In this document: positions 8,501 through 64,000 of the stretch, one piece after another | How the letters are laid out: each line of letters opens with the position of its first letter | How positions within the stretch are numbered: the first letter of the stretch is position 1 | NCBI RefSeq assembly: GCF_004010195.1 | Contig: NC_057755.1 | Coordinates: 3,619,462 to 3,683,461, forward strand | Direction: 5' to 3' | Source: Chiloscyllium plagiosum | Lineage: Eukaryota | Length of the DNA: 64,000 bases | The notes under the pieces: generated by a model | Database searches by the model: none | Told to the model about the DNA's origin: nothing | Seen by the model: the letters and a program-made list of their open reading frames with translations, nothing else | Position numbers and translations under genes: made by a program

Positions 8501-9144
8501 TCATTCTAGAATTCTGAATTTCCGGTTCTGAATTAGTTTCTTTCATTCTTGTATTTGATTTGAGAAACTTTGTATAAGTTCCAGCTGTTGTTGTGGTCAG
8601 TATCAGCTTCAAGTTCAGTATTAGAGTGCGCATTCACAGATAGAATTTCACAAATGAGTTGGAAAACTGAATTAACAAGGATAGCAGTAGGATAACAGTG
8701 TGCAGCAGAGGAGCTCTTAAGGAGCTCAACAACATGATGTATTGAATAACTGAATAACCTCAGCAAAATGACAGTCATCACTGAAACGGATATCGAAAAA
8801 TATTTTGAAATTGATGGGACTGATAGTGAGTGAAATAATGCAAGTCTGGTTGTTTGAAGACAAATTGCAATGAACATTTCAGACCAAATAAGATCAGATT
8901 AATCCAGTCCTTGGGGTATTCAAATACAAATGTAAATCTGAGTGATATCACTGCATTAAAATAAACTTGTTGTCATTCAAAAAACGACTTTAAAGATAAT
9001 GAAAGCATCATAATATTTTTCCAGTGGAGATACCAAGCAAGATAAAACAGTCTGAAACTGTCTCATGTCCAATTATGAGATAGTTCTCCAATGCTGAGAG
9101 ATTGCCATTAGCAGGAAGGAAGCGGTTATTTCACAAGCAACAAA

Positions 9145-9211
9145 ATGTATTTTCCAAGGCTAAAGATCTTAAAAATATACTGCATTATCCTTCCCATTGT
9201 TCGTATGCCTG
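9145..9211 (+). pseudogene. Orphan exon 1 of a GPR139-like GPCR, divergent paralog, probably pseudogenic
   Basis: ATG plus 22 codons plus one G (MYFPRLKILKIYCIILPIVRMP-G), the same length and phase as exon 1 of the two intact genes (MTFSLYHLRKIFYTTIPIVAIP-G). The donor is GCAAGT instead of GTAAGT. A GAGAGATTGC motif also occurs upstream of the ATG in the intact genes. Confidence 0.6.
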
Positions 9212-9609
9212 GCAAGTCATTTAACCACTTAAGTTATATAAGTGTCTACATTCCTACTGAATGCCTAATAAGTATTTTGTTTCCACTTAGTAAGGCAAAT
9301 CCCGAGCCAGATGACAGTGTCCTCACTAACAGAGTTTTAAACGAATAGTTTGTCAGTCAGGAGGCTCCTCAGTAATGTGCAGAATGGGTTTACACTGAGG
9401 CCACATTGATGAAATTTGACTGAGCAGTGGCCCTGGAATGGGAGCACAAATACAATGTTGACAATAGGTGGTTGAGCAGGTTGTTATGGAGTGATAAGTG
9501 AGGGTCAGCACGGATGGCTTCTATCATTCTGAGTGTTTTTGTCAGTCAGTGGATGTGTGGGGACATGATATTTGTGAGGACAGATCATCGGAGGAGTGTT
9601 GGGTACAGG

Positions 9610-10063
9610 GTTCCAAATACGTTCCGCCTACTTGCGGAACGTTTCAGAGAACACCTCTGGGACACCCGCACCAACCAACCCAACCGCCCCGTGGCTGAAC
9701 ACTTTAACTCCCCCTCCCACTCCGCCAAGGACATGCAGGTCCTTGGCCTCCTCCATCGCCAGACCATGGCAACACGACGTCTGGAGGAAGAGCGCCTCAT
9801 CTTCCGCCTAGGAACCCTCGAACCACAAGGGATGAAGACAGATTTCTCCCCATCTCTGGCCTATTACCCTCGCCTTAACCTCCTTCCACCTATCGCATTC
9901 CCAACGCCCCTCCCCCAAATCCCTCCTCCCTACCTTTTATCTCAGCCCGCTTGCCACGCCCTCCTCATTCCTGAAGAAGGGCTTGTGACCGAAACGTCGA
10001 TTCTCCTGCTCCTCGGATGCTGCCTGACCTGCTGCGTTTTTCCAGCAACACATTTTTCAGCTC
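9610..10063 (+). mobile_element. Penelope-like element 3' end: GIY-YIG endonuclease C-terminus plus pseudo-LTR
   Basis: Translation LAERFREHLWDTRTNQPNRPVAEHFNSPSHS...RRLEEERLIFRLGTLEPQGM, followed by a C-rich terminal repeat. Confidence 0.88.
9966..10003 (+). ncRNA. Minimal type I hammerhead ribozyme motif (Penelope-associated)
   Basis: CTGAAGA-A-GGGC-TTGT-GACC-GAAAC-GTC. The CUGANGA, GAAA and GUC core is intact, stem II has one mismatch, and helix III is the palindrome ACGT. Confidence 0.65.
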
Positions 10064-11344
10064 CAAATATAATGTGTATCGTTGAATTATTTGTTGGTCA
10101 AAAAACATGCCAGTTGTGCCATTGGTAAAAGATGCACAGTGCTCTAGTGTGGACATTAATAGGACAAACAATGAGATCTGGAGTGCAGTGGCAGCAGCTC
10201 TCCCACAGAGGATCAAACAACTTTGTCCATCAGTATATTTCCCACTTTGCCCTTTGTTTCTGTTATCATTTCCTGTTCCCCAAACTATAATGGTCTCTGT
10301 AAAGGTGCTTTACAATCAATTGCAAATTAGAAAATCTTCACAGTTGGTTGAATATGTTGGTACTAAGCTTACAAACTGAAATGTCCCCATGGAGGAAAAC
10401 AGATGCAATATCTTTTTAATAAACGAAAAGTAGCAGAGTTACAATTTCGATTCAGTAAAATGCCCGAAAGACATGTCATGTTTACTCAAATAATATTGAT
10501 AATGCATTTGGGACTGATTAATCTTCCAGCAAAGTTAGGACAAGCTGTGAGACATAGTTACACTAACTTCTGATCTAGACTTTAATAAGAATTGATATAG
10601 AGCTGGAAGTGTTAACACAATTTTACACCAGTATGTGATCAGATTTGGATTAACAGTTGATGAATCTGTATTTCAAAATTTTTCCACAGTAGATTAAAAG
10701 TAATTGCTACTTTTTACTTTGCGTCTTCCTGGGGGTTGTGGCGAGGTGGGGTGGGGGTCGGGGGACGGGTGGGGGCAGGTGGGGAGAGAGGTTCATCAGT
10801 CACTTTTAAGTCAATATATAAAAACAAAAAAAAAGAACAGTATGATGAATGAAAATATACCTGTATTAACAAATAACCAACTTAAGTTCCTTTAATACCT
10901 TTAGTATATCTGTAATTAATAATTGAGTTCAAGAGCATTACATAGAATTAAAAGGACAGAATACAGAACATTAGACATGTTCCTTTAAAATACTATCTGT
11001 GGCTCGCCCATGACAAAGTGTTCAAAACCCGAATGAGTATTTTAACTAAATGAACTCTGGTTGTGTTGTACTTTATTCGTAGAAATGGCATTTCCATATT
11101 TTGCATTATTCAATCCCTTAGTGTTTCATTCTCCACATTTGACTATATTCTGCTCACTCTCAGTGAATTTCAAGAAACAGAGGCGTCACTTTCAATATAG
11201 AATATTATGGCCCATTCTCAGTATACTTTATATCACTGATACAGATCACAATTCTTATTTCTAGAATGTAAACATTTCTGTTCTTTTACTGTGATAATGA
11301 CAAACATTCTGTCTTTGCCCGGGAGTCCAAACTGTACCAAACCC

Positions 11345-12430
11345 ATTTTCTTGTATCGCAGCCTCTGACCTTGCCGACACCTTCTCCTACCAGCCTCTTG
11401 ACCACAACCCCCTCTCTCATCACTAAACCATAATCTCCAACACTATCCACAAGCTCATCACCTCAGGTGATCTCCCACCCTCAGCCTCCAATCTCAGTTC
11501 CCCAATCCAATAACGCTCAGTTTTATCTCTTGCTGAACATCCACAAACCCGACTGCTCCAGTCGACCAATTGTTTACACCTACCCGATTGAACTCATCCT
11601 CTCTTGTTTCAATTCCGTCCTGTCCCCCTTGGTCCAGAAACCACCCCCTATCCCCCATATGTTCCAGACACCACCCACTCCCTCTACCTCTTCCATTACT
11701 TTCGTTTCACTGGCCCCCAACACCTCATCTTCACCATGGACATTCAGTCCCTCTACACATATATCCACTATACGAAAGGCCTAAAAGTCCTCTGATTTTC
11801 CGCTCTCACCGACCAAACTGGTCCCCCTCCACTGACAATCTGATTCGCTTGGCAGAACCTGTGCTTGCATTTAACAACTTTTCAATTGAATCCTCCCACC
11901 TCCTACAAAACAGAGAGGTGACTATGGGTACCCAGATAAAATCCAGGTATGCCTGCCTCTTTGTAGGATACATGGGAATAATCCCTCTTCCACAGATACA
12001 CTGGCATCATCCCCCACCTTTTCCTCCGCTACATTAATGACTGTACTGGTGATACTTTGTGCTTCCACGAGGAGCTTGGTTAGCTCTCATTCACCACACC
12101 AGCACATTCCAACCGAACCTCGAATTCACTTGGTCCATCTCCAATGCCTCCCTCCCCTTCCTTAACCTCTCTGTCTCCAGAGATTGATTCCACACTGACA
12201 TCTACTACAAACTCACTATTCGCACAGCTGCCTTGAATAAACCTCCTCCCATCCCCTTTCTGTAAAAGCATCATCCCCTTGTTCCAATCCCTCTACTTCC
12301 CTCTGCTGTATCTGGTCTCATGATGAACAATTCCACTCCGAGGCATTGCAGATGTTCTCCTACCTCAAGGACCGTAATTATTCCTGTTGTGTGATCGACG
12401 GTGCCCTCAATTGCACCTTCTCCACTGGCT
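11345..12430 (+). mobile_element. Penelope-like element reverse transcriptase fragment, decayed
   Basis: Motifs FYLLLNIHKPDCSSRPIV, FTMDIQSLYTYI, MGT..SRYACLFVGY; ttcctccgctacattaatgac encodes FLRYIND. Confidence 0.85.
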
Positions 12431-13351
12431 ACACCTTTGCCCTCGATCACCACTGGCTGGTCTAATACTGCTGCTTTGTTGTATGGCCTTATAATCCAAT
12501 ATATAACCATATTTATATATTGCCACAAGCAGCTCCAACACGAAAAACTATTTATGTATTGCATCCTTGGAATCCTGATTATCGTTGAATATTTCCCTGT
12601 CTTGTTTCGTTCATTAGGCTAAGGTATTTGAACTGAAGTAATAGTTCGATTTTCAGAGCGCCGAAGATGCAGATACTGACATTTAGCTATTTCCCAGGTT
12701 GCCAGAAATGAACCATTGAGAGCAATCCATGCACCGTGACCTGCTGTAGTGTTCAGTTGTCATTTTCCAGGAGTGGGAATCTCATAATCAGACAGAGACA
12801 GAACCACACCCAAAGGGACACAGAAACATACCACACCCTCACACACACAAACACGCAGAAGCACACCCACACACAGAAATACAGGCTGAGTGAGATATAG
12901 GAACACACTGACAAACAAAAACACACTTACACGCACACACAAGTACACACACGCATGTACAAAAGTGCAATAACGCAGTCAAACTGAAATGTGGGAACAC
13001 ACTTACACAAAGACTACAGAAGCATTCCCACACCCTCACAGCACACACAGGCATACAATCAGAGTGCAGAAGGGGAATATACCAACTCACCCATGCGTGC
13101 GCACGCGCTCACACACAGAAAAATAGACATACGGAGACATTTTGGAACACAGCCATGTACAGAAAGAATAAAAACATCCGCATACAAAGAAATACAGTCA
13201 TACTGAGATATTGGAATAAATCTACACACATACATAAATACAGACTTACTTAGCAAGAATGTAACACACCCATATACAGACAGAACGTACACACATCCAC
13301 ACATGCAGACACACCACACACACGCACACACACAACACACAAATTCTGTGA

Positions 13352-13648
13352 TATGGTTAGCACTGCTGCCTCACAGTGCCAGAGACCCGGGTTCAATTCC
13401 CGACTCGGGCGACTGACTGTGTAGAGTTTGCACATTCTCCCCGTGTCTGCGTGGGTTTCCTCCGGGTGCTCCGGTTTCCTCCCACAGTCCAAAGATGTGC
13501 AGGTCAGGTGAATTGGCCATGCTAAATTGCCCATAGTGTTAGGTAAAGGGGTATATGTAGGGGAATGGGTGGTTTGCGCTTCGGCGGGTCGGTGTGGACT
13601 TGTTGGGCCGAAGGGCCTGTTTCCACACTGTAAGTAATCTAATCTAAA
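13352..13648 (+). mobile_element. HE1 (V-domain) tRNA-derived SINE
   Basis: Pol III B-box-like gggttcaattccc, V-domain gtttgcacattctccccgtgtctgcgtgggtttcctccgggtgctccggtttcctcccacagtccaaagatgtgc, CR1-like 3' end and (AATCT)n tail. Confidence 0.92.
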
Positions 13649-13754
13649 ACATCTGAACGCAGACACAGAATCACATGCACAGCCTCACAAACATATGTAA
13701 ATGAACTCAGAGTAAGGGGCATTACACACCAACCTACAAGAACTGACAGATACT

Positions 13755-14510
13755 TCTTATAGAACATAGAACAATACAGCACAGAACAGGCCCTTCAGCC
13801 CACGATGTCGTGCCGACCACTGATCCTCATGTATGCACCCTCAAATTTCTGTGACCATATGCATGTCCAGGAGTCTCTTAAATATGCCCAATGACACTGC
13901 CTCCACAACTGCTGCTGGCAACGCATTCCATGCTTTCACAACTCTCTGTGTAAAGAACCCGCTTCTGACATCCCCTCTATACTTTCCTCCAACCAGCTTA
14001 AAACTATGACCCCTCGTATTAGTCATTTCGGCCCTGGGAAATAGTCTCTGGCTATCGACTCTATCTATGCCTCTCATTATCTTGTATACCTCAATTAGGT
14101 CCCCTCTTCTCCTATTCTACAATGAAAAAAGTCCGAGCTCAGTCAACCTCTCCTCACAAGATAAGTCCTGCAGTCCAGGCAGCACCTTGTAAACCTCCTC
14201 TGAACCCGCTCCAAAGCACTCACATCTTTCCTATAATAGTGCGACCAGAACTGGACGCAGTATTCCAAGTGCGGTCTAACCAAAGTTTGATAGAGCTGCA
14301 ACACGATCTCACGACTCTTAAACTCAATACCCCTGTTAATGAAAGCCAAAACACCATATGCTTTCTAAACAACCATATCCACTTGGGTGGCCATTTTAAG
14401 GGATCTATGTACCTGCACACAAAGATCCCTCTGTCCTCCACACTGCCAAGATTCCTATCCTTAACCCTGTACTCCGCTTTCAAATTCGACCTTCCAAATG
14501 CATCACTTTG
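13755..14510 (-). mobile_element. CR1 LINE 3' portion
   Basis: Translations LYQTLVRPHLEYCVQFWS and TRGHSFKLVGGKYRGDVRSGFFTQRVVKAWNALP; tail atagaacatagaac. Confidence 0.92.
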
Positions 14511-15474
14511 CATTTATATATATATACACACAAGCACATTCAAGCACAGTTACTGAACTACCACCACAATTATATATAGATATAGAACGACTCAGAAACG
14601 AACACAGAGGCACACCCACAGAGAGGCACAGGTCGGTACTGCTGGGAGCGCAGTAGGCTCTTGGAGACGGACAGGCAACCAAACATCGTCTCAACAACAC
14701 ACTCACCTGCTTTAACAAAAGCAGAGCCAGGCAGAGACACATCCCGCAAACCCACAATAGTACATTGACACTCAGATCTACACACACATGGAGTCGCAAA
14801 ACCATCACAATTTGCTGACAACCACACCCACAAACACACCCACCGACAACCACACGGTCAGAGGCATATGAACCCACAAACAGCATACACCTTATTAGAT
14901 GCACACCTGCAAAACACATACAAATACGCAATCACACAGGCACAGTAACACAGACTCACATACAAACACTCAACTTCACGGAAACACTCTCATACAGACT
15001 GAATAACATTCCCAAACACATAAATACATGAATATGCAGTCACTGAAATACTTCCCAATACACACAAAGGGACACCCACACACAGATGCATAAATGCACT
15101 CATAATGTGTCACAGCCGGGGACATATCTAATGATAAAGTCCGAGGGAAACACACACAGAGTGACATCCTCACAAAGACAATGAAACACCCTCACACGGA
15201 GACACACAGAGACCCTCACAATCCGAAAGGAAATCGCATGAACACACCTCCCTGAAGCCACATAGAGAGGAAAAAGAGACGATCGAAGTTCAGGAGACTT
15301 ATTAACAATAATGTGACAAGGTATTGCTGGCTGTATCTGTGCACTTTGCGTTTTACAATATCACTTCTTGGGGAAAGATCAGTGAATGGATGGAACAATA
15401 AGGGACTTGAGTCAATGAAAGTGAGCATGTGCTAAACTGAGACAAGTGCCTGACATGGTAAATGTGAGAAAAAT

Positions 15475-15765
15475 ACAAAGACAGCGCGCGAGAGAGAGAG
15501 GGAGAGAGAGAGCCAGATAATGAGCTGGACAGAGAGACAAAGAAGGATAGGCATAGTGGGAGGCAGTGAGGCAGGCAGTCAGATAGATAGGTAAAGAGAG
15601 ATAGAGAGAGAGCGCAACAGAACGACATAGACGGGGAGAGACGCAGAGAGCGAGATAGACAGAGATATAATCTGAGCAAGAAATTGAGAGATGGGGAGGG
15701 AGAGGAAGAAAGGAACAGAAAGAAAGTCAGACAGAAAGAGGCAGAAAGAGAAAGACAGAAAACAA
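15475..15765. repeat. GA-rich low-complexity tract of the GPCR 3'-flank module; also at about 25320-25610 and 53130-53380
   Basis: Degenerate (GA)n/(GACA)n at the same position in the module copies. Confidence 0.85.
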
Positions 15766-16440
15766 TATCCTTGTGATGTGAGAAGACATGCTGCAGATTC
15801 AATAAATTCTCTCAAAAACAAATGTGCACACAACACTAACCAAGTCAGATAAGATTCCGCCAGCCAGTCTTTAACAACAGGCAGTCTGTTCAGACCCAAA
15901 CTTCCAGCTGACCCATCACTCACAGCCAGTCCATCATTTGGAATCATTCTTCCAACCTCTTTCTATCCTATTCTGCCTTTGACAGTCACCTCTTTCCCAT
16001 TACCTGCTTTCCCTTTGTCGCATCCTTCAATTTGTCTTAAGGTGGAAATGGATAGATTCTTGTTAAATTTTGTGGGGAGGGATGTTACTCAGTGGCACAA
16101 AGGAATGCGCATTTGACTGCACAATTGGATGAGCAGCCATCTTCTGAAGTGCAGGGAGACCAGGCTCAAAAGGCTGCATGGCCTGCTGCTGTTCATTGTC
16201 TGTGTGTCCACGTGTGCGTGAATCCATCAGTCAATCAGGGATAGCAGCATGTTCCTGAGCGGGGTGAATGGTGACCCATCCTGTTAACCCCCACTCTACC
16301 TACCGCTGGGTGTTATACTCAGATCCATGTGGTTATACTGATGGAATCCTGGCCGTTCATATACAATGTCTGCACTGGGAACACTGCGGCTGCCTTTGGA
16401 CAACTCTCAAATGTTTTGCTGAGTTATTAAGTGAACAAAT

Positions 16441-16790: not shown

Positions 16791-17059
16791 TTTACACCAT
16801 GGTAAAGTAATTGAATAAATCTCTCATTCCCATCTCATCAGCACAGATCTGCACATCCACCCAGTTCCAGGAACTTAAAAGAGCTAAAACAATAACCAAA
16901 AATGCTAAAAGAGGAAGTGAAGGCTATTAGTTACGGGTGTTTTCCTTAATCTCAGATTACAGAACTCTCTAACAAATCTTGAAAGCTCTGTTAATATCAT
17001 GCTGGGTTGCAAACCGTCAAAAAATAAACAGAAGTTCATTCGTACACAAATGGAGAGAA

Positions 17060-21992: not shown

Positions 21993-22049
21993 TGTGTATG
22001 CGAATGACTGAATAATGAAGCGAACGTACTGGAGCCAGAGTTTCAGTTG

Positions 22050-25230: not shown

Positions 25231-26854
25231 AACAATCATTGAAGGTAGGGATCAGGAATGCACTTGAGCCAACGAACGTGGACATATACTAAACTGAGAG
25301 AACAAATGTTTGACATTGTCAATGAGAGAAAAAGAGATAGTGTGAGAGAGAGAGACAAAGAATGAGATAGACAGAGAGAGAGAGAGAAGTAAAGAGACAG
25401 AAATACAGGAGAACGAGAGAAAGACAGACAGACAGACCAAGTGAGTGAGAGAGGAACAGAGAGAGAGAGGCAGAGTGAGACACAGAGAGAGACTGACAGC
25501 AGGAAATTCAGAGAGAAAAACAGAGAGAGAATTACAGAGACGGAGAAAGAGATGAAGGGAGGGACAGAGACAAAGAAACACAGTAAGAGGCAGAGAAGTA
25601 GAGAGACAGCAATATCCTTGTGATGGGATTAGCCAGGAGGTGGGCTCAAGAAACTCTCTCAAAACTAAATAAAAATATACGAAATAATAACCAGCTAACC
25701 CCAGAGGACCATCAACACCAGAGCCTTTTTCTTGTGGTAATAAAGTGTTTATTGCGAGCTGAACAGAGAGGTCTGACAATCACCATGGTGCAGGAGGGCC
25801 TGTTTACGTCCTTCCCCCTTCTCCCCTACAGGGGAATTGCAGAGAACCCGTCTGCCGGTCTTTAACACTCATCCACAGGGCAGTCAGCGAAGAGCCAATG
25901 TTCTAGCTGAACCCTGCACTCACAGCCAGTCCGTCATTGTAATCACTCCTGCAGGCTCTTTCCCTCCTACTCTGCCCCTGACAATCACCTCTTTCTTCCT
26001 TCCCTGCTCTCCATTTGTCATGTCCTTCAATATTGTTGAAGGGACAGGTAGATAGATTCTTGTTAACATTTTGGGGGTTGAGTGAGGATAGTGCTCAGGT
26101 GCATATGGGAATGCAGATTTGATGTTACAATTAGATAAGCTGATGTCTTCTGGAGCGGCAGGAGGACCAGAGTCGAAGGGTTAAATGGCCTAATGCTGTG
26201 CTTTGTACGTCCCCATGTGTGTCAATCCGACAGTCAATCAGGGATAGCAGCGTGTTCCTGAGCAGGGTGAATGGTGACATCATTTGTGGAGGGAATCATT
26301 TTTGGATCTTTACTTCCCAGAGATTATCTCTACTTCCACCCGGTTGACCTGCTCCCTATATTAAACTCTATCACCCTTTCCATCAGCGTTTTGACGATTG
26401 CTGTGATCATGTGAGTGCACAAATTTCTCTCATGTGTTGATCAGAACTGTACACAGTTCTTCAGCTGGATCCTCACCCCCCCAAGTCCCACAAAACTCCA
26501 ACAAGACCACCTTGCCTCGATAATCAGCACCAGGACTAAGCAAGATATTGGATGTTCCACATGTCATCTGTGCTATTCCGTTAACATATCATCTCACCTT
26601 CAGGGATGTGTGGACAAGCACCCCAAATCCTACTGTTCCTCTGAGCTTCCTAGTGCCTTGCGTCTCATTCAATATTAACTTGTCTTGTTTAATTAGTTAG
26701 ACAATAGGTCTTTAAAGCAAAGTAAAAGTTCAGGTTTCAGTGGTTATGAGGTGGAGATACTGGTGTTTGGATTTTTGCAAGTTCCCACATATACTCCATT
26801 GAGAGCAATCTGTGCACCATGACCTGCTGCAAACATTGACTGGGAACACTATAG

Positions 26855-28380
26855 TCCGAGTACGATAGATGGGTCAGTTTTTGTCCAGTGTGTGCAGGAG
26901 GGCTTCCTGACATAGTATGTAGACAGGCAAACAAGGGGTGAAGCCACATTAGATTTGGTACTGTGTAACCAGCCCGGCCAGGTTTTAGACTTGAAAGTAG
27001 GTGAGCACTTTGGTGATAGCGATCACAATTCTGTTATGTTTACTTCAGTGATAGAAAGGGATAGGCGTATTCCACTGGGCAAGAGTTACAGCTGGAGGAA
27101 AGGCAACTACGATGCGATTAGGCAAGATTTAGGAAGGGGAAGGAAACTGCAGGGGATGGGCACATTAGAAATGCGGAGCTTATTCAAGAAAAAGCTCCTG
27201 TGTGTCCCAGACAAGTCAGACAGGGAGGAAGCTGTAGAGCGCGGGAGCCATGGTTTACGAAGGCAGTGGAATCTCTGGTAAAGAAGAAGAATAAGGCTTA
27301 TGTTAGGATGAGATGTGAAGGCTCAGTTAGGGCGCTTGAGGATTACAAGGTAGCCAGGAAAGACCTAAAGAGAGAGCTCAGAAGAGTCAGGAGGAGGCAT
27401 GAGAAGTTGTTGGTGGATAGGATCAGGGTAAACCCTAAGGCTTTCTATAGGCATTTAAGGAATAACAGAATGACAAAAGTAAGATTAGGGCCAATCAAGA
27501 AAATATTGGGACGTTGTGTGTGGAGTCAGAGGATATAGGGGAAGCACGAAATGAATATTTTTCGACAGTATTCACTCTAGAAAACGACAATATTGTCGAG
27601 GAGAATACTGAGATACAGGCTACTAGACAAGGTGGGATTGAGGTTCACAAGGAAGAAGTATTAGAAATCCTGCAGAGTGTAAAAATAGACAAGTTCCCTG
27701 GGCCGGATGGGATTTATCCTAGGATCCTCTGGGAAACTAGGGAGGAGATTGCCGAGCCTTTGACATTGATCTTTAAATCTTCATTGTCTACAGTAATAGT
27801 GCCAGAAGACTGGAGGACAGTAAATGTGGTTCCCCTGTTCAAGAAGGGGAGTAGAGACAACCCTGGTGGTTAAAGACCAGTGAGCCTCAATTCAGTTCTT
27901 GGAAAATGTTGGAAAAGGTTATAAGAGATAGGATTTATAATCATCTAGAAAAGAATAATTTGATTAGGGATTGTCAGCACGGTTTTGTGAAGGGTAGGTC
28001 GTGCGTCACAAAGCTTATTCAGTTATTTGACAAGGTGACCAAACAGGGAGATGAGAGTAAACTGGTTGATGTGGTGTATATGGATTTCAGCAAAGCGTTT
28101 GGTAACGGCGAGCACGAGGGGGCATAGCTTTAAATTGAGTGGTGATAGATATAGGACAGATGTCAGAGGTAGTTTCTTTCGTCAGAGAGTAGTAAGGGTA
28201 TGGAATGCTTTGCCTGCAACGAGAGTAGATTCGCCAACTTTAAGTGCATTCAAGTCGTCATTGGACAAACATATGGACGTACGTGGAATAGTGTAGATTG
28301 GATGGGCTTCAGATTGGTATGACTGGTCGGTGCAACATGGAGGGCTGAAGGGCCTGTACTGCGCTGTAATGTTCTATGTT
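26855..28380 (+). mobile_element. CR1 LINE with an internal deletion near 28100
   Basis: EHFGDSDHNSV, KFPGPDGIYPRILWE, QHGFVKGRSCVT, YMDFSKAF, then a jump to TRGHSFKL and a ttctatgtt tail. It interrupts the 3'-flank module. Confidence 0.93.
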
Positions 28381-29240
28381 CACTCGTCTTTTTCCAGGAG
28401 ACGGAGTGCCATGGTGTGACAGAAATATAAACAGATCTTGAAGGACACAGAAACACACTCACACCATCACACAAACATACACACAGACGCAGAAACACAT
28501 CCACATGCACAAATACAGTCAAGGTGAGACGAAGGAACATATTGGTAAACAGAAACAATTACACATTCCATCGTACGCCCCAAATGGGCAAACATATACA
28601 GAATCATATTCAAACGGAGATATGGGAACCAACTACACAAAATAAACCAGATCCTGACGGGCATAGAAACAAAACCTCACCCTCATGCACACAGAGAATA
28701 CAATCAGACTGCAGTATGTGACCATACCTACACATCGCTACATTAACACACTCATACTTCACACACAGGAACACCACCATGCTGAGAGGTATAGGAACAT
28801 GACTATGTACAGATAGATAATGCACACACATCCATACACAAAATACAGTCAAACTGATATATGGGAACAGAACAACGCAGAGATACAAAACACAGACACA
28901 CGCACACATAGCAAGTCATCCTACATAAAGAAAAATATTTACACACAAACAAAGTTGACCCACATCTCCGCACGCATATGGAAATGAGTTCATACTGAGA
29001 GACATTGCACATCAACATGCAAAAACTTGCAGAAACATCCGTATATACACAACTTTAACATAGTTACAGAACCACACATGCAATTAGATATAGATATCGA
29101 GCGACACTCATAAACAAACAGAGACAGACTCACAGAGAGGCAAACAGAGATCCTGCTAGGGGCTCAAAAAGATATTGACACACAGACAGACAACCAAACA
29201 CAGTCTGAGCAACACACTCACCTCTTGTTGCAATGAAGTG

Positions 29241-29246
29241 TTTATT
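29241..29246 (-). terminator. Candidate polyadenylation signal (AATAAA) of GPCR gene A
   Basis: TTTATT on the plus strand, at the homologous position of the 3'-flank copies (25748-25753 and 53515-53520). Confidence 0.45.
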
Positions 29247-30490: not shown

Positions 30491-30585
30491 ACGCCCAATC
30501 GTTCATATGTAATTCCTGCACTGTTAACACTGCAGTTGCCTGGGGACCTCTGCCAGTTCTTTTGCTGAGTCATTAAGTGAAGAAT

Positions 30586-50900: not shown

Positions 50901-53514
50901 AGGCTCAGTGGACAGTGTCAATGCTCAGTTCATCAGCTCTGCTGGTGACACCGTAGTCTGAATATTTTTTTCTCCAATAATAAGAGGAGATTGACGTGTT
51001 TTTGGAGGGGACCATTTCTGGATCTTTATCTACAAAGGATTGTCTCCACTCTTGCCCAACTGACCAGTTTCCCTTATTAAACGCTGTCACCCTTTCCACC
51101 TCTCATCAGATTTTTTAAGATTTCTGTGTTCATGTGAGTGTATACAATCCAACAAAACTCCAGAAAGACTTCCCTACCCCTATAATCTGCACCACGACTG
51201 ATCGAGGCATGTGGTGTACGATGTGCCACCTTACATATTGTATTAACCTGCTCTCCGATATTCAGGGATCAGTGGACAAGCATCCCAAGTTCCCAGTGGT
51301 CCTTTGAGATTCCTCGTGCCTTGCATCTCATTAAACATTCCCTTGCTTTATTTCTTTAGTGAAACAATAGGTCTAGAAACCGAAGAAAAAGTTTAGGTTC
51401 CAGTAGTTATGTGGTGGAGAGACTGATGTTTGGATTTTTCCCAGGTTCCCACGTATACTCAATTGAGAGCAATCTGTGCACCGTGACCTGCTGTCGGCTT
51501 CACTCGTCCGTTTTCAGGAGAGGGAGTGTTGTGACGAGACAGGAATATAACCGGGTCATTAGAGACACAGAAACACACCCACATGTTCACACTCGCAAAA
51601 GCTAGCCACTCAGACACAGAAGTAAACCCACACGCCTAAATACACTCAAGTTGAGACATAGGAAGATACTTATAAACAAAAACAGGAACACATCCCATCC
51701 TCCAGCCACAACACACGAACATACACACAAACATTGAAACGGAGATATGGGAAACCAGCTCCAGACAGAAACATTACCTGATCCTGAGGGACATATAAAC
51801 GCAAACCCACCCTCACAAAAGCACAGAGGAAAAAAATCAGACTAAAGTGTGTGATTATACCTATACACTGAAACATTAACATACCCAAACTTTACATGCA
51901 CCGCCATACTGAGAGATATAGGAACACGCCTACATAGAGACAAAGAATGCACACACATGCACAGACAGAAATACAGTCATACTGTGACATGCAAACAGTC
52001 CAACAGAACACACACATGCACACGTAAAAAGTATTTCCAAATAAAGAAACATATTGACACACAGACACATAATCACACCCACATCCCTACGCCTATATAG
52101 AAATGAAGTCATACTGAGAGACATTGCACATCAACATGCAAGAACTTACAAAAACATTTGTACACACATGAGCACAGTAAAACACAGTTACAGAACCACA
52201 CATACAATTATATTTAGACATCGAGCGACACTCGGAAGCGAACAGAGATATGCCAACAGAGAGTCAAACAGATCCTGCTGCGGGCACAGAAAGATCCTGA
52301 CTCAAGGACAGGGAGGAAAACACAGTCTGAACAACACATGCAACTGCTTAAACACAAGCAGAGGCAGTTAGAGACACAGCCCCACTGCCACAATGATGCA
52401 CTGAACGTCAGAGAAAAACACATATAGAGTCACCAACTGACATGCTGGCAGTAACACATGCATACACACATACACAAACACACAAAATTCATTGTCATAG
52501 GAATGTAATAACACACAATCACACAGCATATACACTGGCACAAACACAACAGATACAATGTCAAAACACACTGATACACATTCATGATGGCACAGGAGCA
52601 AACAGTCACACACACATACTCACTGTCACAGAAACACTCCCTCATAGACTGACTAATATACCAAAACACATAAACACCGCAATATGTAGTCACCAAAATA
52701 CTTCTCCAGGCCCACACACAGAGGGAAATCAACACACGGGGGCAGAAATGAACTCACAGTGTGTCACATGGACATATCCAAAGTCAAAACCTGTGGACAC
52801 ACACACACACAATGACATTCCCACAAAGGCAGTGAAACATAGATGCACACAGAGACCCTCACAGACGGAAAGTGAAGCACTTAAACATAAACTCCCTAAC
52901 ATTGACAGGGAGAGAGAGGGAGACAGTCAAAGTGCAGAAGATGAAGGGATACTACATTTACAGAAATGTAACTAATATTATGCCAAGGTATTGTTGGATA
53001 TGCCTGTGCATTTTGTATTTTCCAAAATTGCCTCCTCAGATAAACTCACTGAAAGGAGAGATATAGAAGTGCTTTGAGCCAATTCATGTGAGCAAATGTT
53101 AACCTGAAATGACACGTGTCTGATGTGATCAATGTGAGAAAAAGAAACAGAGCGTGAGGCAGAGACAGCGACAGAGAAAGAGAGAAAACACATGAGACAG
53201 ACAAAGGCAAAGACAGACAGAGAGACAGAGGTAGAGGGAGAGAGTCAGAGAGAGACTGACATCAAGAAATGTAGAGATGGAGAGAGAGATGCAGACATAG
53301 CGAAAGAGAGTGAGAAAGAGAGGAAGAGAGGGACAGAGACAACGACATGCAGAAAGAGGTGGAGAGAGAGAGAAGGCAATATCCCTGTGGTGGAAGTAAA
53401 CATGGGGGATCTCGAGAAACCCTGTCGAATCTGAACAAATGTGAATGGAGCAAGAAACAGTTCAGATACAATGATCACCAGCAGACCGAGTCTTTCTTTT
53501 GTTGTAATAAACTG

Positions 53515-53520
53515 TTTATT
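53515..53520 (-). terminator. Candidate polyadenylation signal (AATAAA) of GPCR gene B
   Basis: About 690 nt past the stop codon; positionally conserved in three module copies. Confidence 0.45.
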
Positions 53521-54205
53521 GCCAGCGAACAGACAGAGACTGACAATGATCATGGTGCAGAAATGACTGTTCCGGTCCCTCCCTCTCCTCCCCTACAGTG
53601 GAAATGCAGAAACCCCTGCTGCCGGAATTTTTCACTCATTCTCAGGCTGTCTGTGAAAAATCAATATTCCAGCTGAGTCCATCGCTCAAAGCCAGTCCAT
53701 CATTTGGAATCACTCCTCCAGCCTCTTTCCAACCTCCACTGCCCCTGACAGTTACCTCTTGTTCCCTTACCTGCTGTCCCTTTGTTATGTCTTCTAATAC
53801 TCCTTAAAGTTGAGGTGGATGGATTCTTGTTCAGCCTGGGAGATTGATATCATTATCCACAGCAGACAGGAATGTGGATTACAATTTAGAATTGCATGAG
53901 CTATGATGCTCTGGAATAACGTGTGGACCTGTTTAGAAGGGCTGAAAGGCCTACTGTTCCTCATTGTCTGTGTGTCTCCATGTGTGTCAATCCGTCGGTC
54001 AATCAAGGAGAGCAGCTTGGACCTGAGCGTGGTGAATGTTGACCCATATTGCTTCGCCCCTCGCCATCCACTGCAGGGTGTTCAACAAAATTCATGTGAT
54101 TGTGCTGATGAAATTCTGTCTGCACATATGCAATTCCTGCACTGGGAAAACTGCTGATGCCTGGGGACCGCCCCAGTTCTTTTGCTGAGTCATTAAGTGA
54201 AGAAG

Positions 54206-55080: not shown

Positions 55081-56972
55081 CTGAAAGAAACAGGAAGTAA
55101 AATGCAAATTGGAAATTAATGATCACGCTTGTGGACGTTGGAACAGATAGCAATATAAGATCTTAGCACATAAATGTGTCAGTGGGAAGGTTCAGATATC
55201 GAGTTTGAACGAGACACCTCCAATGGCCTGAACCAATTTGAAGATGTTCACTCCTGTGTTTAAATAAGGGTGGGCAGGCAATTCTCAGATGGCGGGAGGT
55301 GGGGATGGGTATACCTTTCAGGCTAAAGGGAAGAGGTGTTTTGTGGGTGTCTGCTAATTCAGTGCCTGGGAGAGTTGTGGAAGAAGGAAATATCACAAAC
55401 TTTAAAAACCATGTGGATGAACGGTTGAAGCATCATAATATTCGTGACTATGAGTATAGTGCAGGAAGCTGGGACGAGAGTCGACATTGTGTAGCTTCGT
55501 TAGCACAAACTGGAACGACCAAAGGGAAAACAGCCCAGCATATTCAGCCTATCCCTATACTTCAAATATTCCAACCCTGGCAATATTTTTTCTGAACCAT
55601 TTCAGATTTTCCAACATTCTTGGAGGGAGACTAGAATGGCACACAATATTCCAAACGTCGCCTAACCAATGTCCTGCACAGCCACAACATGATCTCCCAA
55701 TCCCTATACTGAATGCTCTGATCAATAAAGGAAAGTATACCAAACATCGTCTTCATCGAACTCTCCACCTCAGAAAACATTTTCAAGGATCTATGATCTT
55801 GCACTCCAAGGTCTCCTTGTTCAGCGACAAAGCCCAGGACCTTACCCATAACTGTCTGTGTCCTGCTCTGATTAGCCTTTCAATGAGAAGGGTCTCACAT
55901 TCATCTAAATTAATGCGACTCTGCGACTCCTTGGATTATTGGCCCATCTGTTCAACCTTCTCCCTTGTCAAATCCCACTTTAAATTTCGTGTCATCTGCA
56001 AACTTACGAACTAGAATGTAAATTGTCAATTTCATATCGTTTCTGTCAATGGCAAAAAGCTGTGGATCCAGCATCAATTCCACTCACACACCACTGGTCA
56101 CAGGCCTCCATTCTGAAAAGCGAGTCGACACCACCACCCTCTGTCTTCCACCGACAAGCCAGTTTTGTACCAAAAAGCTGGGTCTCCTTGAGTTCAATGC
56201 CAGCTAACCCTTAGGAATTTGTCTACCATGGCAAACCAGTTTGAACACCTTCCTCAAGTCTATATCGATCACGTCCACTGTTCTGCCTCATCAATCCACT
56301 TTGATACTTCTTCAAAAAACGCAGTTAAATTGGTGAGACATGATAGCACATGTACAAAGGCATGTCAACTGCCCCTAATCAGTCCTTGCCACTCCAAATA
56401 CATATATATCCTGCCCCTGCAGATTCACTCTCACAACTTGCCCACCACTAATGTCAGGCTTTCCACTCTATACTGTCCTGGCATTTCCTCTCACCTTTTT
56501 TTAAATAGTGGCGCTATGTTCGCCAACCACTAGTCTTCCAGCACCTCACCAACTGTCAATGATAAAAATATCTCACCAAGTCCCACAGCAATCACTTCCC
56601 TAGCTTCCCAAAGAGATTGCAAGGACACCTCATCACGTCCTGGGGATTTATCCAACCTCATGATTTTTAAGATATCCAGCATCGCTTCTGATGCAAAATG
56701 GGCATTTTTCAAGATGTCAGCACCTGTTTCCCAATGCCCTGTATCTAGCATGCCATTCTGCGTAGTAAACAAAGATGCAAAATGCTTGTTTACTATTGCT
56801 CACATGACCTGCATTTCCACACACAGGCTGCGACATTATGCTTCAGGAGTCCTGTTTTCTCCTGTGTTACAGTTCTGTCCTTAATATATTTATGAAATAC
56901 GTTCGGATTCTCCTTAACCCTTTTTGGCAAAGCTATCTTATGTCCACTTTTTGCCCTGCCGATTTCCCTCTT

Positions 56973-58445
56973 CGGTTAACGAGTTTTGAGAAGATTTACA
57001 AACCCTTCATCAAAAACAGGAAATTACATCACTCTAGGAAATGAAGTCACCACAGGAAATGACATCACCCACCCAAGGAAAATCAAACATATAAGTAGGA
57101 CGCCAGAGACAATACCAGTGCTTCATTCGAAGGCTCACTGTATATGTTACCTTGTTCTAATTTTTTTAAATAAGTAACAACGAAGATTGATGAAGGCAGA
57201 GCAGTAGGTTGAGATCTATATGGACTTCAGTGAGACGTTCGACAAGGTTCCCCATGGGAGACTGATTAGCAAGGTTAGATCTCATGGAATAAATGGAGAA
57301 TTAGCCATTCGGATACAGAACCGGCTCAAAGGTAGAAGACAGAGGGTGGTGGTGGAGGGTTGTTTTTCAGACTGGAGGCCTGTGACCAGTGGAGTGCCAC
57401 AAGGCTCGGAGCTGGGTCCTCTACTTTATGTCATTGACATAAATGATTTGGATGCGAGCATAAGAGGTATAATTAGCAAGTATGCAGATGTCACCAAAAT
57501 TGGAAGTGTAGTGGACAGCAAAAAGGGTTATCTCAGATTACAACAGGATCTTGATCAGATGAGCCAATGGGCTGAGAAGTGGCAGGTGGAGTTTAATTCA
57601 GATAAATGCGAGGTGCTGCATTTTGGGAAAGCAAATCTTAGTAGGACTTATACACTTAATGGTAAAGTCCTAGGGAGTGTTGCTGAACAAAGAGGCCTTG
57701 GAGTGCAGGTTCATAGCTCCTCGAAAGTGGAGTCACAGGTAGATAGGGTAGAGAAGAAAGCGTTTGGTATGCTTTCCTTTATTGGTCAGAGTATTGAGTA
57801 CAGGAGTTGGGAGGTCATGTTGCGGCTGTACAGGACAGTGGTTAGGCCACTGTTGGAATATTGCGTGCAATTCTGGTATCCTTCCTATCGGAAAGATGTT
57901 TTGAAACTTGCAAGGGTTCAGAAAAGATTTACAAGGATGTTGCCAGGGTTGGAGGATTTGAGCTATAGGGAGGGGCTGAGCAGGCTGGGGCTGTTTTACC
58001 TGTCGGAGGCTGAGGTGTGACCCTATAGAGGTTTACAAAATTGAGTGGCATGGATAGGATAAATAGACAAAGTCTTTTCCCTGGGATCGGGGAGTCCAGA
58101 ACTAGAGGGAATAGGTTTAGTGTGTGAGGGGAAAGATATAAACGAGACCTAAGGGGCAACCTTTCCACGCAGCGTGTGGTACGTGTATGGTATGAGCTGC
58201 CAGAGAATGTGGTGGAGGCTGGTACAATTGCAACATTTAAGAGGCATTTGGATGGGTACATGAATAGGAAGGGTTTGGAGGGATATAGGCCGGGTTCTGG
58301 CAGGTGGGACTAGATTGGGTTGGGATATCTGTTTGGAGTGGACAGGTTGGACTGAAGAGTGCGTTTCCATGCTGAACATCTCTATCACTCTATGACTCTA
58401 TGTCTGAAAATGAATCTTCCAGCTCAGCGAGCAAACCTACATCCA
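56973..58445 (+). mobile_element. Poseidon-type Penelope pseudo-LTR with a 9-bp target-site duplication, split by a CR1
   Basis: TTCCCTCTT at 56964-56972 and 58446-58454. 57000-57153 plus 58401-58445 match 19450-19645. Confidence 0.8.
57160..58400 (+). mobile_element. 5'-truncated, relatively young CR1 LINE with a 266-aa reverse transcriptase ORF
   Basis: ORF 57220-58020: FDKVPHGRL, SGVPQGSELGPLL, SKYADVTKI, LEYCVQFW; ctatgactcta tail. Confidence 0.95.
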
Positions 58446-60423
58446 TTCCCTCTTAAGTCTTCTCCTGCTCCCCTCATGCTCTTGTCAGTATTGACTCGAT
58501 CTCTGCTGTCTATCCCTGACATATGCGTCCTTCTTTTTACCAAAACCGCGATTTTTCCCATCATACAGCATTCCTGCACCTTTCAGTCTTGCCTTTCAGC
58601 CTAACAAGAACATACTGTCTCTGGACCCTTGCTATCTCATTTTCGAAGGCATCTCATTTTCTAACCATCGCTTCACCTTCGAACATCTCCCCTGAAGTCA
58701 GCTTTTGAAAGTTCTTGCCAGGTACTTTAAAAATTGGCCACTTTTTAAACTGATATATTTATGTTCGCTTGCCAGAATGTGCTCTCCAGTGACGCCTCAG
58801 TCACCTGGCCTGCCTTATTTCCTGAGAGTAAGTCAACGTTTGAGACTGCACCAATACCTACATCTGCTTAGTGAATCAGAAAATTTTATCCTACACACTT
58901 AACAATTTCCTCTCCATCTCAACCCTTAACATTCTGCAGTCCCAGACTATGTTTGAAACGTTAACATTCCCTACTATTACCACCCTATTATTCTTACAGA
59001 TAACTGATATCTCCTTACGAATTTTTTTGTCGACTTCCCACTTACCATTCGCGGGTCAATAATACAATCGCAATAAGGTGCTAATCGTTTTCTTATTTCT
59101 CAGTTCCACACAAATATCTTCCCTGGACATAATTTCAGGAATATCCTGTCTAATTACAGCTGTAATGTTATCCATTATCAAAAACACAAATTCCCTCTCC
59201 TCTTTGCTCCGTTTCTTTCCTTTCGACAGCATTAAGCTGTCAGTCCTGTCCTCCCCTGAGCCACGTCTTTATAATTTGCTATGATATCCTATTCCATCTT
59301 CCTCACTATCCCGACGTTCATCTGCCTTCCCCGTTGGTCCGCTTGTATTGCACCGAAAGTAATCCAAAATCATTCCCCCAAGCACCTCCTTTTAAATGAC
59401 TGCCGAACTTCTTATATTTCACATTCTGAATTTTATTCTTTTCCCTTCGTATGTCATTAGTTCCACTGTGCACACGACTTCCTGCTGGTCCCTCTCCCCT
59501 TTGAGAGTATTCTGCACCCTCTCCAAGACATCCTTGATCTTGGCACCAGCGAGGCAACATTCCATTTTGGTTTCTCAATGTTTGTCGTAGAAATGTCTGT
59601 TTATGCCTCTAGCTGGACAGTGCCTTATCACAATTGATCACTTGTAACCTGGCATGCCCCTGTTATATATTAGAGCCAGTTTTGGTGTCAGAAACCTGGT
59701 AGTTCATGCCACATTCTCGAAGAGTCCATCACCCCCGACATTTTCCAAAGCTGCATACTTGTTTAAGATGGCGATAGCCACCGGAGACTCCTGCACGATC
59801 CACCTCTCTGTCCAACCTTTCTTGGAGCTGACCCATCTACATCATTATATCTGCGGTTTTCCCCTCCTACTGTAAATGCTAGCCATCACATTCCCTACCT
59901 CCTGTAAATACCCCTTTACCTCTTACTGCTTCTCCAATCGAGTTAATAGGATTCAAAATCAAACACACTTACTGTAGACATAATTTTCAGTAAATAGAAG
60001 CTTTCCTAGGAAGAGTTTATCAGTCCACTAAAAGTCATCTTTGCACCTCAATAATCTACAGACCCAGACAATACCACAGCCCTAGAGCTCTAAAATACAC
60101 TTCTCCGGGCTAAAGTATTGCCAATGACTTATACTTTTATACTTTACTCAAGAGGCAGAACTAAATAAAACAAATACCCAAGAATGAACTCGCTCCACTT
60201 GCTGTTGTAGACTGACACAAAAAAGGCAGGAAAATTATACTTAAAAACTATGCTCTCATCTGCTCCTGTGCTGTGATCTCTTACACACAAGTTCCTCCAA
60301 GGGCAGCTGTGATTTTTGCTGGGTTTGCTTTCCCAGGTACACTCTGATGACCAGAAACACAGGGACTCAAACAACAAAGACAGGAGCTGTGCAGATTCAC
60401 TGCGGTCTCAGACAGCAGTAATA

Positions 60424-60461
<38 letters not shown>

Positions 60462-63400
60462 CCCTCTGGCTGACCATGTGGTCTCCAACTTTGTCTAACG
60501 TCCTTCTTATTGCCTGGCTTTGATATTTATTTTCCCCAATTATCCAAAGCAGTCCACCTACTTGCAAATTAATAATCTTTCAGGAATTCGTGAAAGTCAG
60601 CTCTGACACGTAAAATACCTCAACTAAGGGAGCAGCTCTTACAGCCACAGTCTTTTCTCGTCCTCCATATAGGTTTGCCTGGAATGTTCTGATCTGCAAA
60701 AACATGAGTTGTTGCACTTGTGAAGATGGAATGGTTTAACGGAGGATGCGAACAGAAACGAGAAAGTTTGGTTTCATCATTGAAGGGACAAACCACAATC
60801 TGTGATGATAAAATGAGGATCTATTAACTCACTGAATCCTGTAGAGTTTGTTTTGGGAAGTGAACAATTCCTTGTCATATTTAGAAAGTGTTCCATTTTT
60901 GCTTGTACATTCAGTGAACAGATAATGCCAAATACAAATCAGTAGATGTGCCTATTTTATTACGTTATCTGCATTGTCTGACTGAAATTGTCTTGGGGAT
61001 AGGCTTTTTGAAACTTTTTGAATAAGCGACATAATGCACAACAAAACAGACAGCGTCACTACTACAAATTCCGAATTTTGCGGATCCAATCCATTGTGTA
61101 ATAAAATAAGACGTTAAAAAATAATCAGGTGTCTCTGACTCTCTATTGTGCTCTAATCATGTCAGGTGCAATTAACATGGGAAGTGTTAATACAAATACT
61201 CAGCAGTTAGTAGACAGAACAAGATTTCATAATTCGTTCTTTTTTAAAAAACTTTATTTTGTAATGAGAATGCCTAAATAAGGTAAGCAATATTAACCTA
61301 ATGAATTGATTCATTCATATCTTCTAAACGTAGTTCGCAATAATCCTCCTCAGGCAAAACTGCTTCATGCAGTGTAAAAAATAGGAAGCCACAAAAACTT
61401 CTTCAGGAAAACAACTGGAAATTAGCCACAGTCATCTGAAATTCAATTTAACACTTCGCAGTTTTAAAATGTTGGAAATGGACAACGCAGCAACAGCCCA
61501 TTCTGCCCACTGAGCGAATCCACTTTAATACTCCTTAGTCTTTCTTCAGTCCCACAGAACTACAGGAAAGTTATGGCACTGAAAGAGGTTATTCATGTCT
61601 GCATTAATTGAGTAAACTGGCTACCTGCTCTGATCCCATTTTGCAGCACCTGGTCCACAGCGTTGAAGGTTTTTACACCTCAGGTGCAGATCCAAGTTCC
61701 CTTTCAAATGGTTGAGGGTTGCCACTTCACGCCACTATCCAAACTGGAAAGTGAATTCCAAATGCACCGTCAGCTTTTGAATGAAATTGTACGCCTCATG
61801 TCCCCTACATAGCTTCCATCAATTATTCATTCTCTGCGTCTCCTGATAAATGGTCCTGCGTTTGGGGAGATGAGTCTCCATTCAAGAGCCTCCTTATTTT
61901 CTACATCTCAATCACGTCAATTCTCATTCCACTCTGTTTACGAGTTGACCCAAACACTATCTTTTTTCTTGTAAATCTCTTCTATACTCTCCTCAGTGCA
62001 ATTCAGTTCTCACTGCTGTCTCATAACCAGCACTGTGCACAAAACCGCAGCAGGGAGCCAGCCAGTGCCTTATGTAGTTCCAGTGTTACAGGTCGGGAAA
62101 GTGTGCGGTATTTTTTTTTGTTGGCGCTGGTGCGCAGTGAGAGAGAAGTAATGTTGGGAGGAATAATATGTAATTACATCTCAATGTGAATCTCTGATCG
62201 GGATCTGTGGCATATGATGGATCTGAACGGATATTCTTTGGGCACAATTTATTTGAGGTTTGGGTGTAGTTTATCAGTTTCAGACAGTCTAAGTGTTTAA
62301 CAGACTCCCTTCTGTTTTGATATCAGGTGATTAATTACAGAGCACACCTCGATACTCGACAGAAATCCAAGCTGATGACACATGACCTTGTTTGTGTTGA
62401 TTTAACAAAGTGATCTCTTGCTGTATCGTAAACACACAATGCTGTAAATATTACATCCTTTAAAAATGAAATTTATTGCTAAAGAAATGATGGTAAAGCA
62501 GAATAAAGCAAACTACGTACGTATAAAACAGATTTAAAGGCAATGAACACACAGCAGAAGTATAATTGTCATTAATCTCAAAACAATGCATATATGAAAC
62601 GAAAGGCCACGATTTTCACATTTTACACAAAACCCGACTCCCAGTTCCGTTCAAACAAAACAGCCCTCAAAACATATTCACACCAGAATCGTCGTATCTA
62701 TCACTTGGCAAAATGACTTTTGACTGCCAATTCTCAACTGGAATTGCAGTCAATTTCTTACTGGAGCTACCGCACATCTGAGCATCAATATACTCAGCTT
62801 AAAAAAAAATCTTCAGAGCTTTTCTTTGGTCACAACACTACAGTCTGTGGCTAACACAAAACCTTCACTCCAAGGTAATGCTATTTACGAAAAGTCTCGT
62901 TTCGTTTGCATAGGCACAGGTCTATGCAGCCACTCAGTTCCAGGGTCTTACAGCAACAAAACTAAATGATAAAAATGATAAAATTGAAAGTAAAGCTTTC
63001 TCAGTAAGGATTTCTTCCTTAATTGAAAATTCCAGAACTCACCTACAAAGTTTTTGAGGCCCCATTATGCCATGTTGGGTTGCAACCATCAAAACTTAAC
63101 AAAAGCTCATTCGCACACAAAACCATTCAGCCCATCGCCAAACTTCAAACGCAATCTTTAAAAGAAACTGCAGCAACTACACAAATAAATCCAAGGCAAC
63201 TATAAACTTTAGATGCACAGAGAAGCCCACTGCTTATTCACTTCAACACCAGAACCAAACACAAACTCACTAATATTGCACTCTCTGCATATAATATCAT
63301 CGCTCTCTGTTTCCAAAGTGATTCCTTGCCTTAATTCCATTGAAACTCTCCGTAGTCTACGATTGAAATGGGCATTTCTGGAAGGTTTTCAGGAGAGATG

Positions 63401-63602
63401 AATAATATCCCAAGCAATTCCTGTGGAATCTGCGATGACACGGTTTCCATAGGGTCCCTGTAATCTGATGATAAATTACCGAGCTCCAGCCATTGTGTGA
63501 ATTTTGGGCACAACCTATCTATATATCATTGTCAGTGACAGAGTGAACCCGAAGCCCACCATCAGACAGATTGACACAATTTCAATGGTGTACTGCACTT
63601 AC

Positions 63603-63669
63603 CGGGGATTGTTACAATCGCAAGGGTCATATAAAATAATTTCCGCAAGTAATAAAGTGAAAATGTCAT
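63603..63669 (-). CDS. GPCR gene B exon 1
   Basis: MTFSLYYLRKLFYMTLAIVTIP-G|gtaagt; 67 nt, phase 1, in frame with exon 2 at 55080. Confidence 0.88.
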
Positions 63670-63742
63670 TTTCTGCCTGAAACTCTGTGCGCAGGCAATC
63701 TCTCTGTACTCAATGCGAGGTGATGTAATCTCAAAGCCTTTC

Positions 63743-63749
63743 ATTTATA
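63743..63749 (-). promoter_or_regulatory. Candidate TATA box of gene B
   Basis: TATAAAT about 75-80 nt upstream of the ATG, same context as gene A. Confidence 0.55.
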
Positions 63750-64000
63750 CCTGCTGGCATCGCCTGGGGGACAGTTACATTACAATGTGTTTCACTTCAT
63801 TTATTTAAGAATTTGAACAAACAGGTGACAGCGGTGAGTTAACTCCCAGTGGCAGCAGATTATTTTTACAACTGTGGTTTATACGAATATATCTATCGAA
63901 TTCTCATTTCATGTCAGTGTTGTCCTCCCCTTGACTTTGATCATTTGGAAATTAAATCCCAGTTGTTGAGTGTCTCTCTGAGAAACGTTCTCTTCAACAC

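Follow-up and report, generated by a model that had tools for sequence, protein, structure and literature searches.

What kind of receptor has been multiplied in this part of the genome of Chiloscyllium plagiosum, and for what use? The stretch analysed here, 64,000 nucleotides (nt) of contig NC_057755.1 and hereafter called the window, holds two complete two-exon genes, A and B, that encode G-protein-coupled receptors (GPCRs) of class A, both on the minus strand. The answer that we favour, tentatively and at a probability of about 45%, is that A and B are members of a large GPCR family which multiplies by tandem duplication in cartilaginous fishes and would serve them as a repertoire of chemosensory receptors.

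Each gene has a coding sequence of 942 nt for 313 amino acids, split inside the first transmembrane helix (TM1) by a single phase-1 GT-AG intron of about 8.6 kb, the splicing being predicted from the sequence and not from RNA. The two differ at 47 of 313 residues and at 100 of 942 nt, and gene B 60010-63882 is 73% like gene A 36539-40413. The first-pass annotation of this DNA had likewise described two intact 313-residue, two-exon receptors with 47 differences, and both exon-2 frames match Pfam 7tm_1 above the curated cut-off (E 1.3e-17 and 6.2e-16). The parts of the two genes are as follows.

40198-40132, minus strand: gene A exon 1, 22 codons plus 1 nt, encoding a short N-terminus and the first half of TM1, with the GT donor next to it
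31461..40131, minus strand: gene A intron, 8671 nt, phase 1, GT-AG, containing fragments of long interspersed nuclear elements (LINEs)
31460-30586, minus strand: coding part of gene A exon 2, from the second half of TM1 through the stop
26283..30585, minus strand: 3' flank module of gene A, whose polyadenylation-type hexamer at 29246 lines up with the one at 53520 in gene B
63669-63603, minus strand: gene B exon 1
55081..63602, minus strand: gene B intron, 8522 nt, phase 1, GT-AG
55080-54206, minus strand: coding part of gene B exon 2, open, with Cys at position 7.53
50999..54205, minus strand: gene B 3' flank module
40275..40280 (gene A) and 63744-63749 (gene B), minus strand: TATA-like hexamer 75-77 nt upstream of the ATGs, a putative promoter element

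Both proteins have the seven helices and the residues N1.50, D2.50, C3.25, R3.50, P5.50 and W6.48 of class A. A longer N-terminus starting at an upstream ATG, whose frame is open in A, was rejected because that frame is stopped in B and overlaps the shared TATA-like hexamer.

The size of the family is the first piece of evidence. Gene A exon 2 as a query gave 1118 protein matches, the best 120 of which all come from sharks, rays and skates, and nearly all of these 120 carry the automatic NCBI name 'probable GPR139'; the closest among the matches listed, at 64-73%, are from carpet sharks. The horn shark accounts for 74 of the best 120, and thus for at least 74 distinct members, with no pair above 93% core identity and 68 groups at 90%; a hand count gives 33 of the 74 with one and the same 74.5-Mb sequence length, the rest having several others. 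A profile search of a 50%-identity library returned 132 matches below 1e-30, and among 20 divergent family representatives the 17 with a species name are all chondrichthyan, Callorhinchus milii included (three have no species). The named species, 17 in total, span sharks, rays, skates and the chimaera Callorhinchus; since a chimaera member was found, the family is likely, on these matches, to predate the split of sharks and chimaeras. The expansion proposed earlier for sharks is therefore lineage-specific as claimed, but rays, skates and Callorhinchus have members too. In run X1, contigs match the unique flanks at about 99%, and summed depth reaches 1050-2309 on exon 2 and 1590 on the exon 1 bin, against 29-60 in four unique flank or intron bins of the gene A region; depth is no measure of copy number, and the pile-up on the gene A exons is a hint of many relatives. 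In its many tandem paralogues and its pseudogenes the family resembles a chemosensory receptor repertoire.

The genes are public as NCBI models, and the expansion is visible to anyone counting. A full-text literature search, with most subscription papers outside its reach, found no paper describing the family, and the family's name does not occur in the supplements searched. GPR139 is absent from the main text of PMC11979771, and a tandem-cluster survey of rays (bioRxiv 10.1101/2025.06.08.657570) does not name the family in the passages covered, while its Fig. 5A, Fig. S3 and Table S4 may list it.

As to ancestry, the label 'GPR139' is loose. Among solved structures, that of human GPR139 gives the family profile its strongest match (E 1.8e-14, 57 bits; the next at 6.5e-10), and human GPR139 is also the nearest human receptor of known structure for an amphibian relative and for a coelacanth protein. 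However, the earlier description of A and B as GPR139-like holds only in this distant sense, since the profile gives 57 bits to GPR139 against 171 to the amphibian sister; gene A exon 2 alone has no match to GPR139 at E 0.001, and GPR139 is not among the top 50 fold matches of the exon 2 model. The same profile gives 171 bits to a salamander protein and 171 to a coelacanth protein, and 98-115 to amphioxus and unnamed proteins. A salamander query returned 25 rows: four elasmobranch proteins, one from a sturgeon, and 20 clusters from amphibians in which no named species occurs twice; no teleost or amniote match appeared within the limited reach of this word-index search. In a tree of 55 rows, 38 family rows (33 chondrichthyan-named or from the window, five without species) form one group (support 96/88) that is joined to six amphibian and sturgeon rows (96/99), while coelacanth, fish and amphioxus rows fall outside the combined group, with weak deep branches (64/60). 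The tree is without GPR139 or GPR142 rows: these were sought, but a search with the amphioxus relative gave only 11 amphioxus-type proteins, and none stood in the top 150 of the profile search.

In the amphibian and sturgeon receptor (P0232, P0296-P0315; frogs, salamanders, a caecilian and a sturgeon) the predicted pocket does not vary and position 2.50 is Asn. Its sequence suggests a conserved orphan receptor for a single, fixed ligand; we know of no function recorded for it. It is apparently single-copy, with one cluster per named species, though clustering at 90% could hide near-identical paralogues. At 27% identity to gene A, it shares with the family the Cys-Cys after the DR motif, the cysteine of the second extracellular loop (ECL2) and the last part of the third intracellular loop (P0232, P0299, P0315). 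It differs from the family in its single cluster per species, its invariant pocket, Pro 6.50, DRY and Asn 2.50, whereas DRF, the loss of Pro 6.50 and two cysteines in the first intracellular loop mark the family and do not occur in the amphibian gene; the DRF motif and the missing TM6 proline that had been remarked on in A and B are thus common to their kin.

GPR139 itself has a two-exon gene (PMC7318219) and resembles the family in this, in lacking a proline at 7.50 and in having Trp 6.48 and the TM5 proline. In contrast, the family has a Cys at 3.25 together with one in ECL2 (Asp there in GPR139), has DRF, lacks Pro 6.50, and differs further in its third intracellular loop, which is longer and conserved, and in its variable pocket. 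GPR139 exists as a single copy, the human and zebrafish proteins being 70% identical (PMC7318219); the family has neither the high identity, nor the single copy, nor the Trp/Phe pocket of a GPR139 orthologue. By sequence, then, the family is not GPR139, and its link to that receptor is distant. PMC6504862, in the part available, names sets of 'GPR210' in coelacanth and fishes but no chondrichthyan members, and the word 'shark' is absent from its main text; our coelacanth and fish rows, which share the orphan neighbourhood of GPR139 and GPR142 with the family and lie outside the family-plus-amphibian group, presumably correspond to GPR210. Our reading of these relationships is a separate jawed-vertebrate gene near GPR139/142 that would be single in amphibians and sturgeon and expanded in cartilaginous fishes.

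The earlier view that the family is distinct from the OR, TAAR, V1R and V2R receptors stands, judged by its relatives: Pfam reports 7tm_1 only, and no name of OR, TAAR, V1R/ORA, V2R, TAS1R or TAS2R occurs among the 120 homologues or the 60 PDB matches listed. The family is like the OR, TAAR, V1R and V2R repertoires in its tandem birth and death, its short N-terminus and its variable pocket on a conserved intracellular face, and unlike them in ancestry and in the intron within TM1. FPR, MRGPR, nematode srw and mollusc chemoreceptor clusters are comparable expanded repertoires of sensor GPCRs, and some members among the ESM Atlas neighbours have Srw-type Pfam matches.

If the copies serve many ligands, the pocket should tell. 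In GPR139, the residues that bind Trp and Phe are E108, F109, H187, W241, R244 and N271 (PMC7318219). Mapped by profile alignment, these six positions read A, R, D, W, H, E in gene A (one of six kept, W) and E, R, D, W, H, E in gene B (two kept, E and W), while the amphibian gene keeps three (F, W, N) and has K for R. As the Trp/Phe pocket is not kept in A and B, the amino-acid sensing that had been proposed by analogy with GPR139 is unsupported. The same residues bear on the idea that the copies are GPR139-like internal sensors which detect aromatic amino acids or the animal's own neuropeptides in the brain, the gut or the gonad, and whose number would serve dosage or control in particular tissues. 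No solved structure matches the family profile better than that of GPR139, Trp and Phe elicit responses from GPR139 and GPR142 (PMC7318219), as dynorphin peptides do from GPR139 (PMC12287315), and the amphibian sister keeps half of the pocket plus a Lys for Arg; but A and B keep only one and two residues, and 71 different six-residue combinations in the 74 horn-shark paralogues misfit a small fixed set of ligands, so that we hold this idea to be very improbable.

The variation is concentrated where ligands would bind. Among the 120 homologues listed, entropy is 2.1-3.5 bits at 3.29, 3.32, 3.33, 6.51 and 7.39, all of which are invariant in 20 amphibian sequences. In the horn-shark paralogues, the mean is 1.48 bits at 21 positions that we take from class A numbering to be pocket-facing and 0.85 at the 42 other positions of the outer helices (p 0.004), whereas the 20 amphibian sequences show 0.02 bits in the pocket and 0.38 at the other outer-helix positions; sample sizes were matched and core identities are similar (78% vs 81%). 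Likewise, the outer half of the receptor averages 1.44 bits and the inner half 0.61 in the 120 family members listed, as opposed to 0.35 and 0.65 in amphibians. D2.50, P5.50, W6.48, N7.49 and Y7.53 are present in 120 of the 120 homologues listed, Cys 3.25 in 119 and the ECL2 Cys in all 120. Gene B departs from this pattern, its codon 293 (7.53) being Cys where all 120 have Tyr, and of the NTxxY motif once ascribed to both proteins only the copy in gene A remains. The absence of a glycosylation sequon, also reported earlier, is true of the N-terminus but not of the whole protein, since both A and B have a sequon at residue 267, in the third extracellular loop.

Further features of A and B stand beside these. 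Both depart from near-invariant family residues at 45, 70, 116, 121, 229, 236, 287, 292 and 297. A near-invariant cluster of cysteines lies on the intracellular face (residues 36, 41, 112 and 113, in the first loop and at the end of TM3) and could serve palmitoylation or metal binding. In the last third of exon 2 (54206-54500 vs 30586-30880) the genes differ at 3-5 per 75 nt, below most other blocks, which is suggestive of gene conversion or strong constraint. Homologue models P0258, P0180, P0016 and P0025, one of them amphioxus-like, start at or just before the start of exon 2, a hint that the TM1 intron may be old.

The history of the cluster raises another explanation, namely that copies accumulated by genomic drift. 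When the window is compared with itself, four modules that resemble one another appear on its minus strand, interspersed with LINE fragments. Two of them contain complete genes, and the remaining traces are these.

about 16790-16440, minus strand: pseudogene that keeps no more of exon 2 than its last third, broken by a stop and small indels
16791..17050, minus strand: intron-1-like stretch joined straight to the pseudogene, a 71% match to 39389-39650 (5' part of intron 1)
12574..16439, minus strand: 3' flank module of the pseudogene, 70-72% like the other flanks
23514-26278, minus strand: gene-less 3' flank module, 70-72% like the other flanks, directly adjoining the gene A module at the latter's far end
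9145-9211, plus strand: orphan exon 1, inverted, with a GC donor, from a more distant family member

All five elements claimed for the window are present, though the gene-less module, which stops about 160 nt short of the position of the stop codon and has no coding match, can be counted as a former copy only by inference. The straight junction between the pseudogene and its intron-1-like stretch probably marks a deletion. Since the 3' flanks are 70-74% alike in all pairs, the duplications are old. The orphan exon 1 is real: scored with an exon-1 matrix built from homologues, it ranks third of the 922 ATG-started, stop-free 22-mers in the window (7.4, against 11.1 for A, 11.0 for B, -17.0 for the fourth candidate and -5.7 for the best of 100 shuffled windows). 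Two further tests of it were weaker: a two-gene DNA profile gave E 0.009 with one of 20 shuffles scoring higher, and a gapped protein hidden Markov model missed it, having no power (shuffles up to 11.3). It lies on the opposite strand and is far more diverged from A and B (35-36 of 67 nt identical) than these are from each other (53 of 67), and no exon 2 to pair with it occurs on the plus strand anywhere in the window. Being inverted and far more diverged from A and B than the pseudogene is, it was rejected as the lost first exon of that pseudogene; the block 24228-24673 / 29871-30336 was rejected as part of the modules because it is a high-copy repeat. These traces support a tandem birth-and-death cluster.

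Such a cluster could arise through unequal crossing-over in repeat-rich large genomes, the pocket varying by lost constraint and not by selection for many ligands. Three of the five traces in the window are dead, gene B has a likely damaging change at 7.53, and, of two batoid genomes compared, the one of greater size tends to have the bigger tandem clusters (bioRxiv 10.1101/2025.06.08.657570). Yet A and B have evolved under purifying selection (ratio of nonsynonymous to synonymous change, dN/dS, 0.34 overall, Fisher p 4e-7), the signalling motifs are invariant in the homologues listed, the pocket is more variable than neighbouring outer-helix positions and many deep subfamilies have been retained across sharks, rays and chimaera. 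We consider drift improbable.

What the copies would bind is suggested by their architecture. An AlphaFold model of exon 2 has seven helices and a two-strand ECL2 hairpin (mean predicted local distance difference test score, pLDDT, 77; the other four models 48-60). A fold search with it, which did not separate receptor subtypes, placed neurotensin, cholecystokinin, galanin and chemokine receptors first, at about 20% identity. Peptides activate the protostome sister group of GPR139/142 (PMC8557429). A ligand-diversified, expanded repertoire is well supported as a reading of the sequences, and the pattern is that of many-ligand receptors built like peptide receptors.

The favoured chemosensory explanation can be put as a sequence of steps. 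In the chondrichthyan stem, an ancestral receptor of jawed vertebrates, present once and tied to one ligand, would have been freed to become a repertoire for many ligands, each paralogue coming to bind a different ligand from outside the animal's fixed set of hormones. The modelled hairpin, the disulfide cysteines and the kinship with a clade of peptide receptors make peptides or peptide-like molecules the probable ligands. The paralogues would signal through one shared G protein, possibly Gq by kinship with GPR139 only, and their putative place of use would be sensory cells of the nose, mouth, skin or gill.

Several points weigh against this explanation. The pocket pattern fits immune sensing equally well, and nothing here separates chemosensory from immune use. 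In the competing immune scenario, the family would be a sentinel repertoire with which leukocytes, mast-like cells or barrier epithelia read microbial, parasite or damage peptides, as mammalian FPRs and MRGPRs do. The FPR and MRGPR clusters are precedents for it, a diversified pocket, tandem turnover and a peptide-receptor fold are equally expected under it, and the sequence matches that follow GPR139, weak as they are, include chemokine and peptide receptors. Its probability is lowered, weakly since other gene names are possible, by the absence of the name from the supplements searched of the shark immune single-cell papers PMC11372145 (4 files) and PMC10529500 (1 small file) and of a thymus paper (12 of 19 files), and we regard it as unlikely, though as a serious competitor.

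The case for chemosensation has weak points of its own. The homologue statistics describe the best 120 of 1118 matches; the pocket positions were set by helix numbering, not by coordinates; entropy is no codon test, and relaxed constraint on the pocket would look alike. The A/B dN/dS of 1.27 in the ECL2 window belongs to one of seven windows, with an uncorrected Fisher p of 0.013, and is not significantly above 1. Gene B may perhaps be impaired and signal poorly through the loss of the invariant Tyr 7.53. No expression in a sensory tissue turned up in the data covered. A single-cell RNA run, its tissue not stated, gave no reads on gene A exon 1 or on the exon-2-only bins (about 2% of the run was read), and the 50 most specific genes of a catshark brain-plus-olfactory library include no GPCR (PMC11979771), a list that is uninformative for sparse receptors. 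Four runs compared with 28400-40500 gave reads on repeats only in X5, none in X6 and no splice joint, which says nothing of other tissues.

The rest of the window is rich in repeats. Broken fragments at 1-3600, 20300-21900, 26900-28100, 32400-33500, 41900-43050 and 55500-58400, on both strands, are presumably LINE-type reverse transcriptase and endonuclease, to judge by their motifs. A second type of retroelement at 40665-41931 (minus strand), with pieces at 19169-19488 and about 9600-9800, has what we take to be a Penelope-like reverse transcriptase and a GIY-YIG endonuclease. Tandem arrays lie between genes A and B at 47196-47512 and 49586-49716 (units of 41-45 nt and 36 nt), a 187-codon open stretch at 44187-44750 (minus strand) has no match to the receptor family, and direct copies at 996-1430 and 1613-2057, 92.5% identical, flank an N gap (1431-1612) and are possibly an assembly artefact.

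The chemosensory repertoire of cartilaginous fishes has been described as small (65 genes in the catshark; PMC6368271) because surveys covered only the six known families, and the at least 74 members counted in the horn shark exceed all 65 of these. Our reading is that of an expanded, sensor-type GPCR repertoire that would derive from a new ancestor: a large ligand-recognition system, whether sensory or immune, under the automatic label 'probable GPR139', with a different predicted pocket in almost every copy within one shark. Its conserved, single amphibian sister gene would offer a route to the ancestral ligand in Xenopus.

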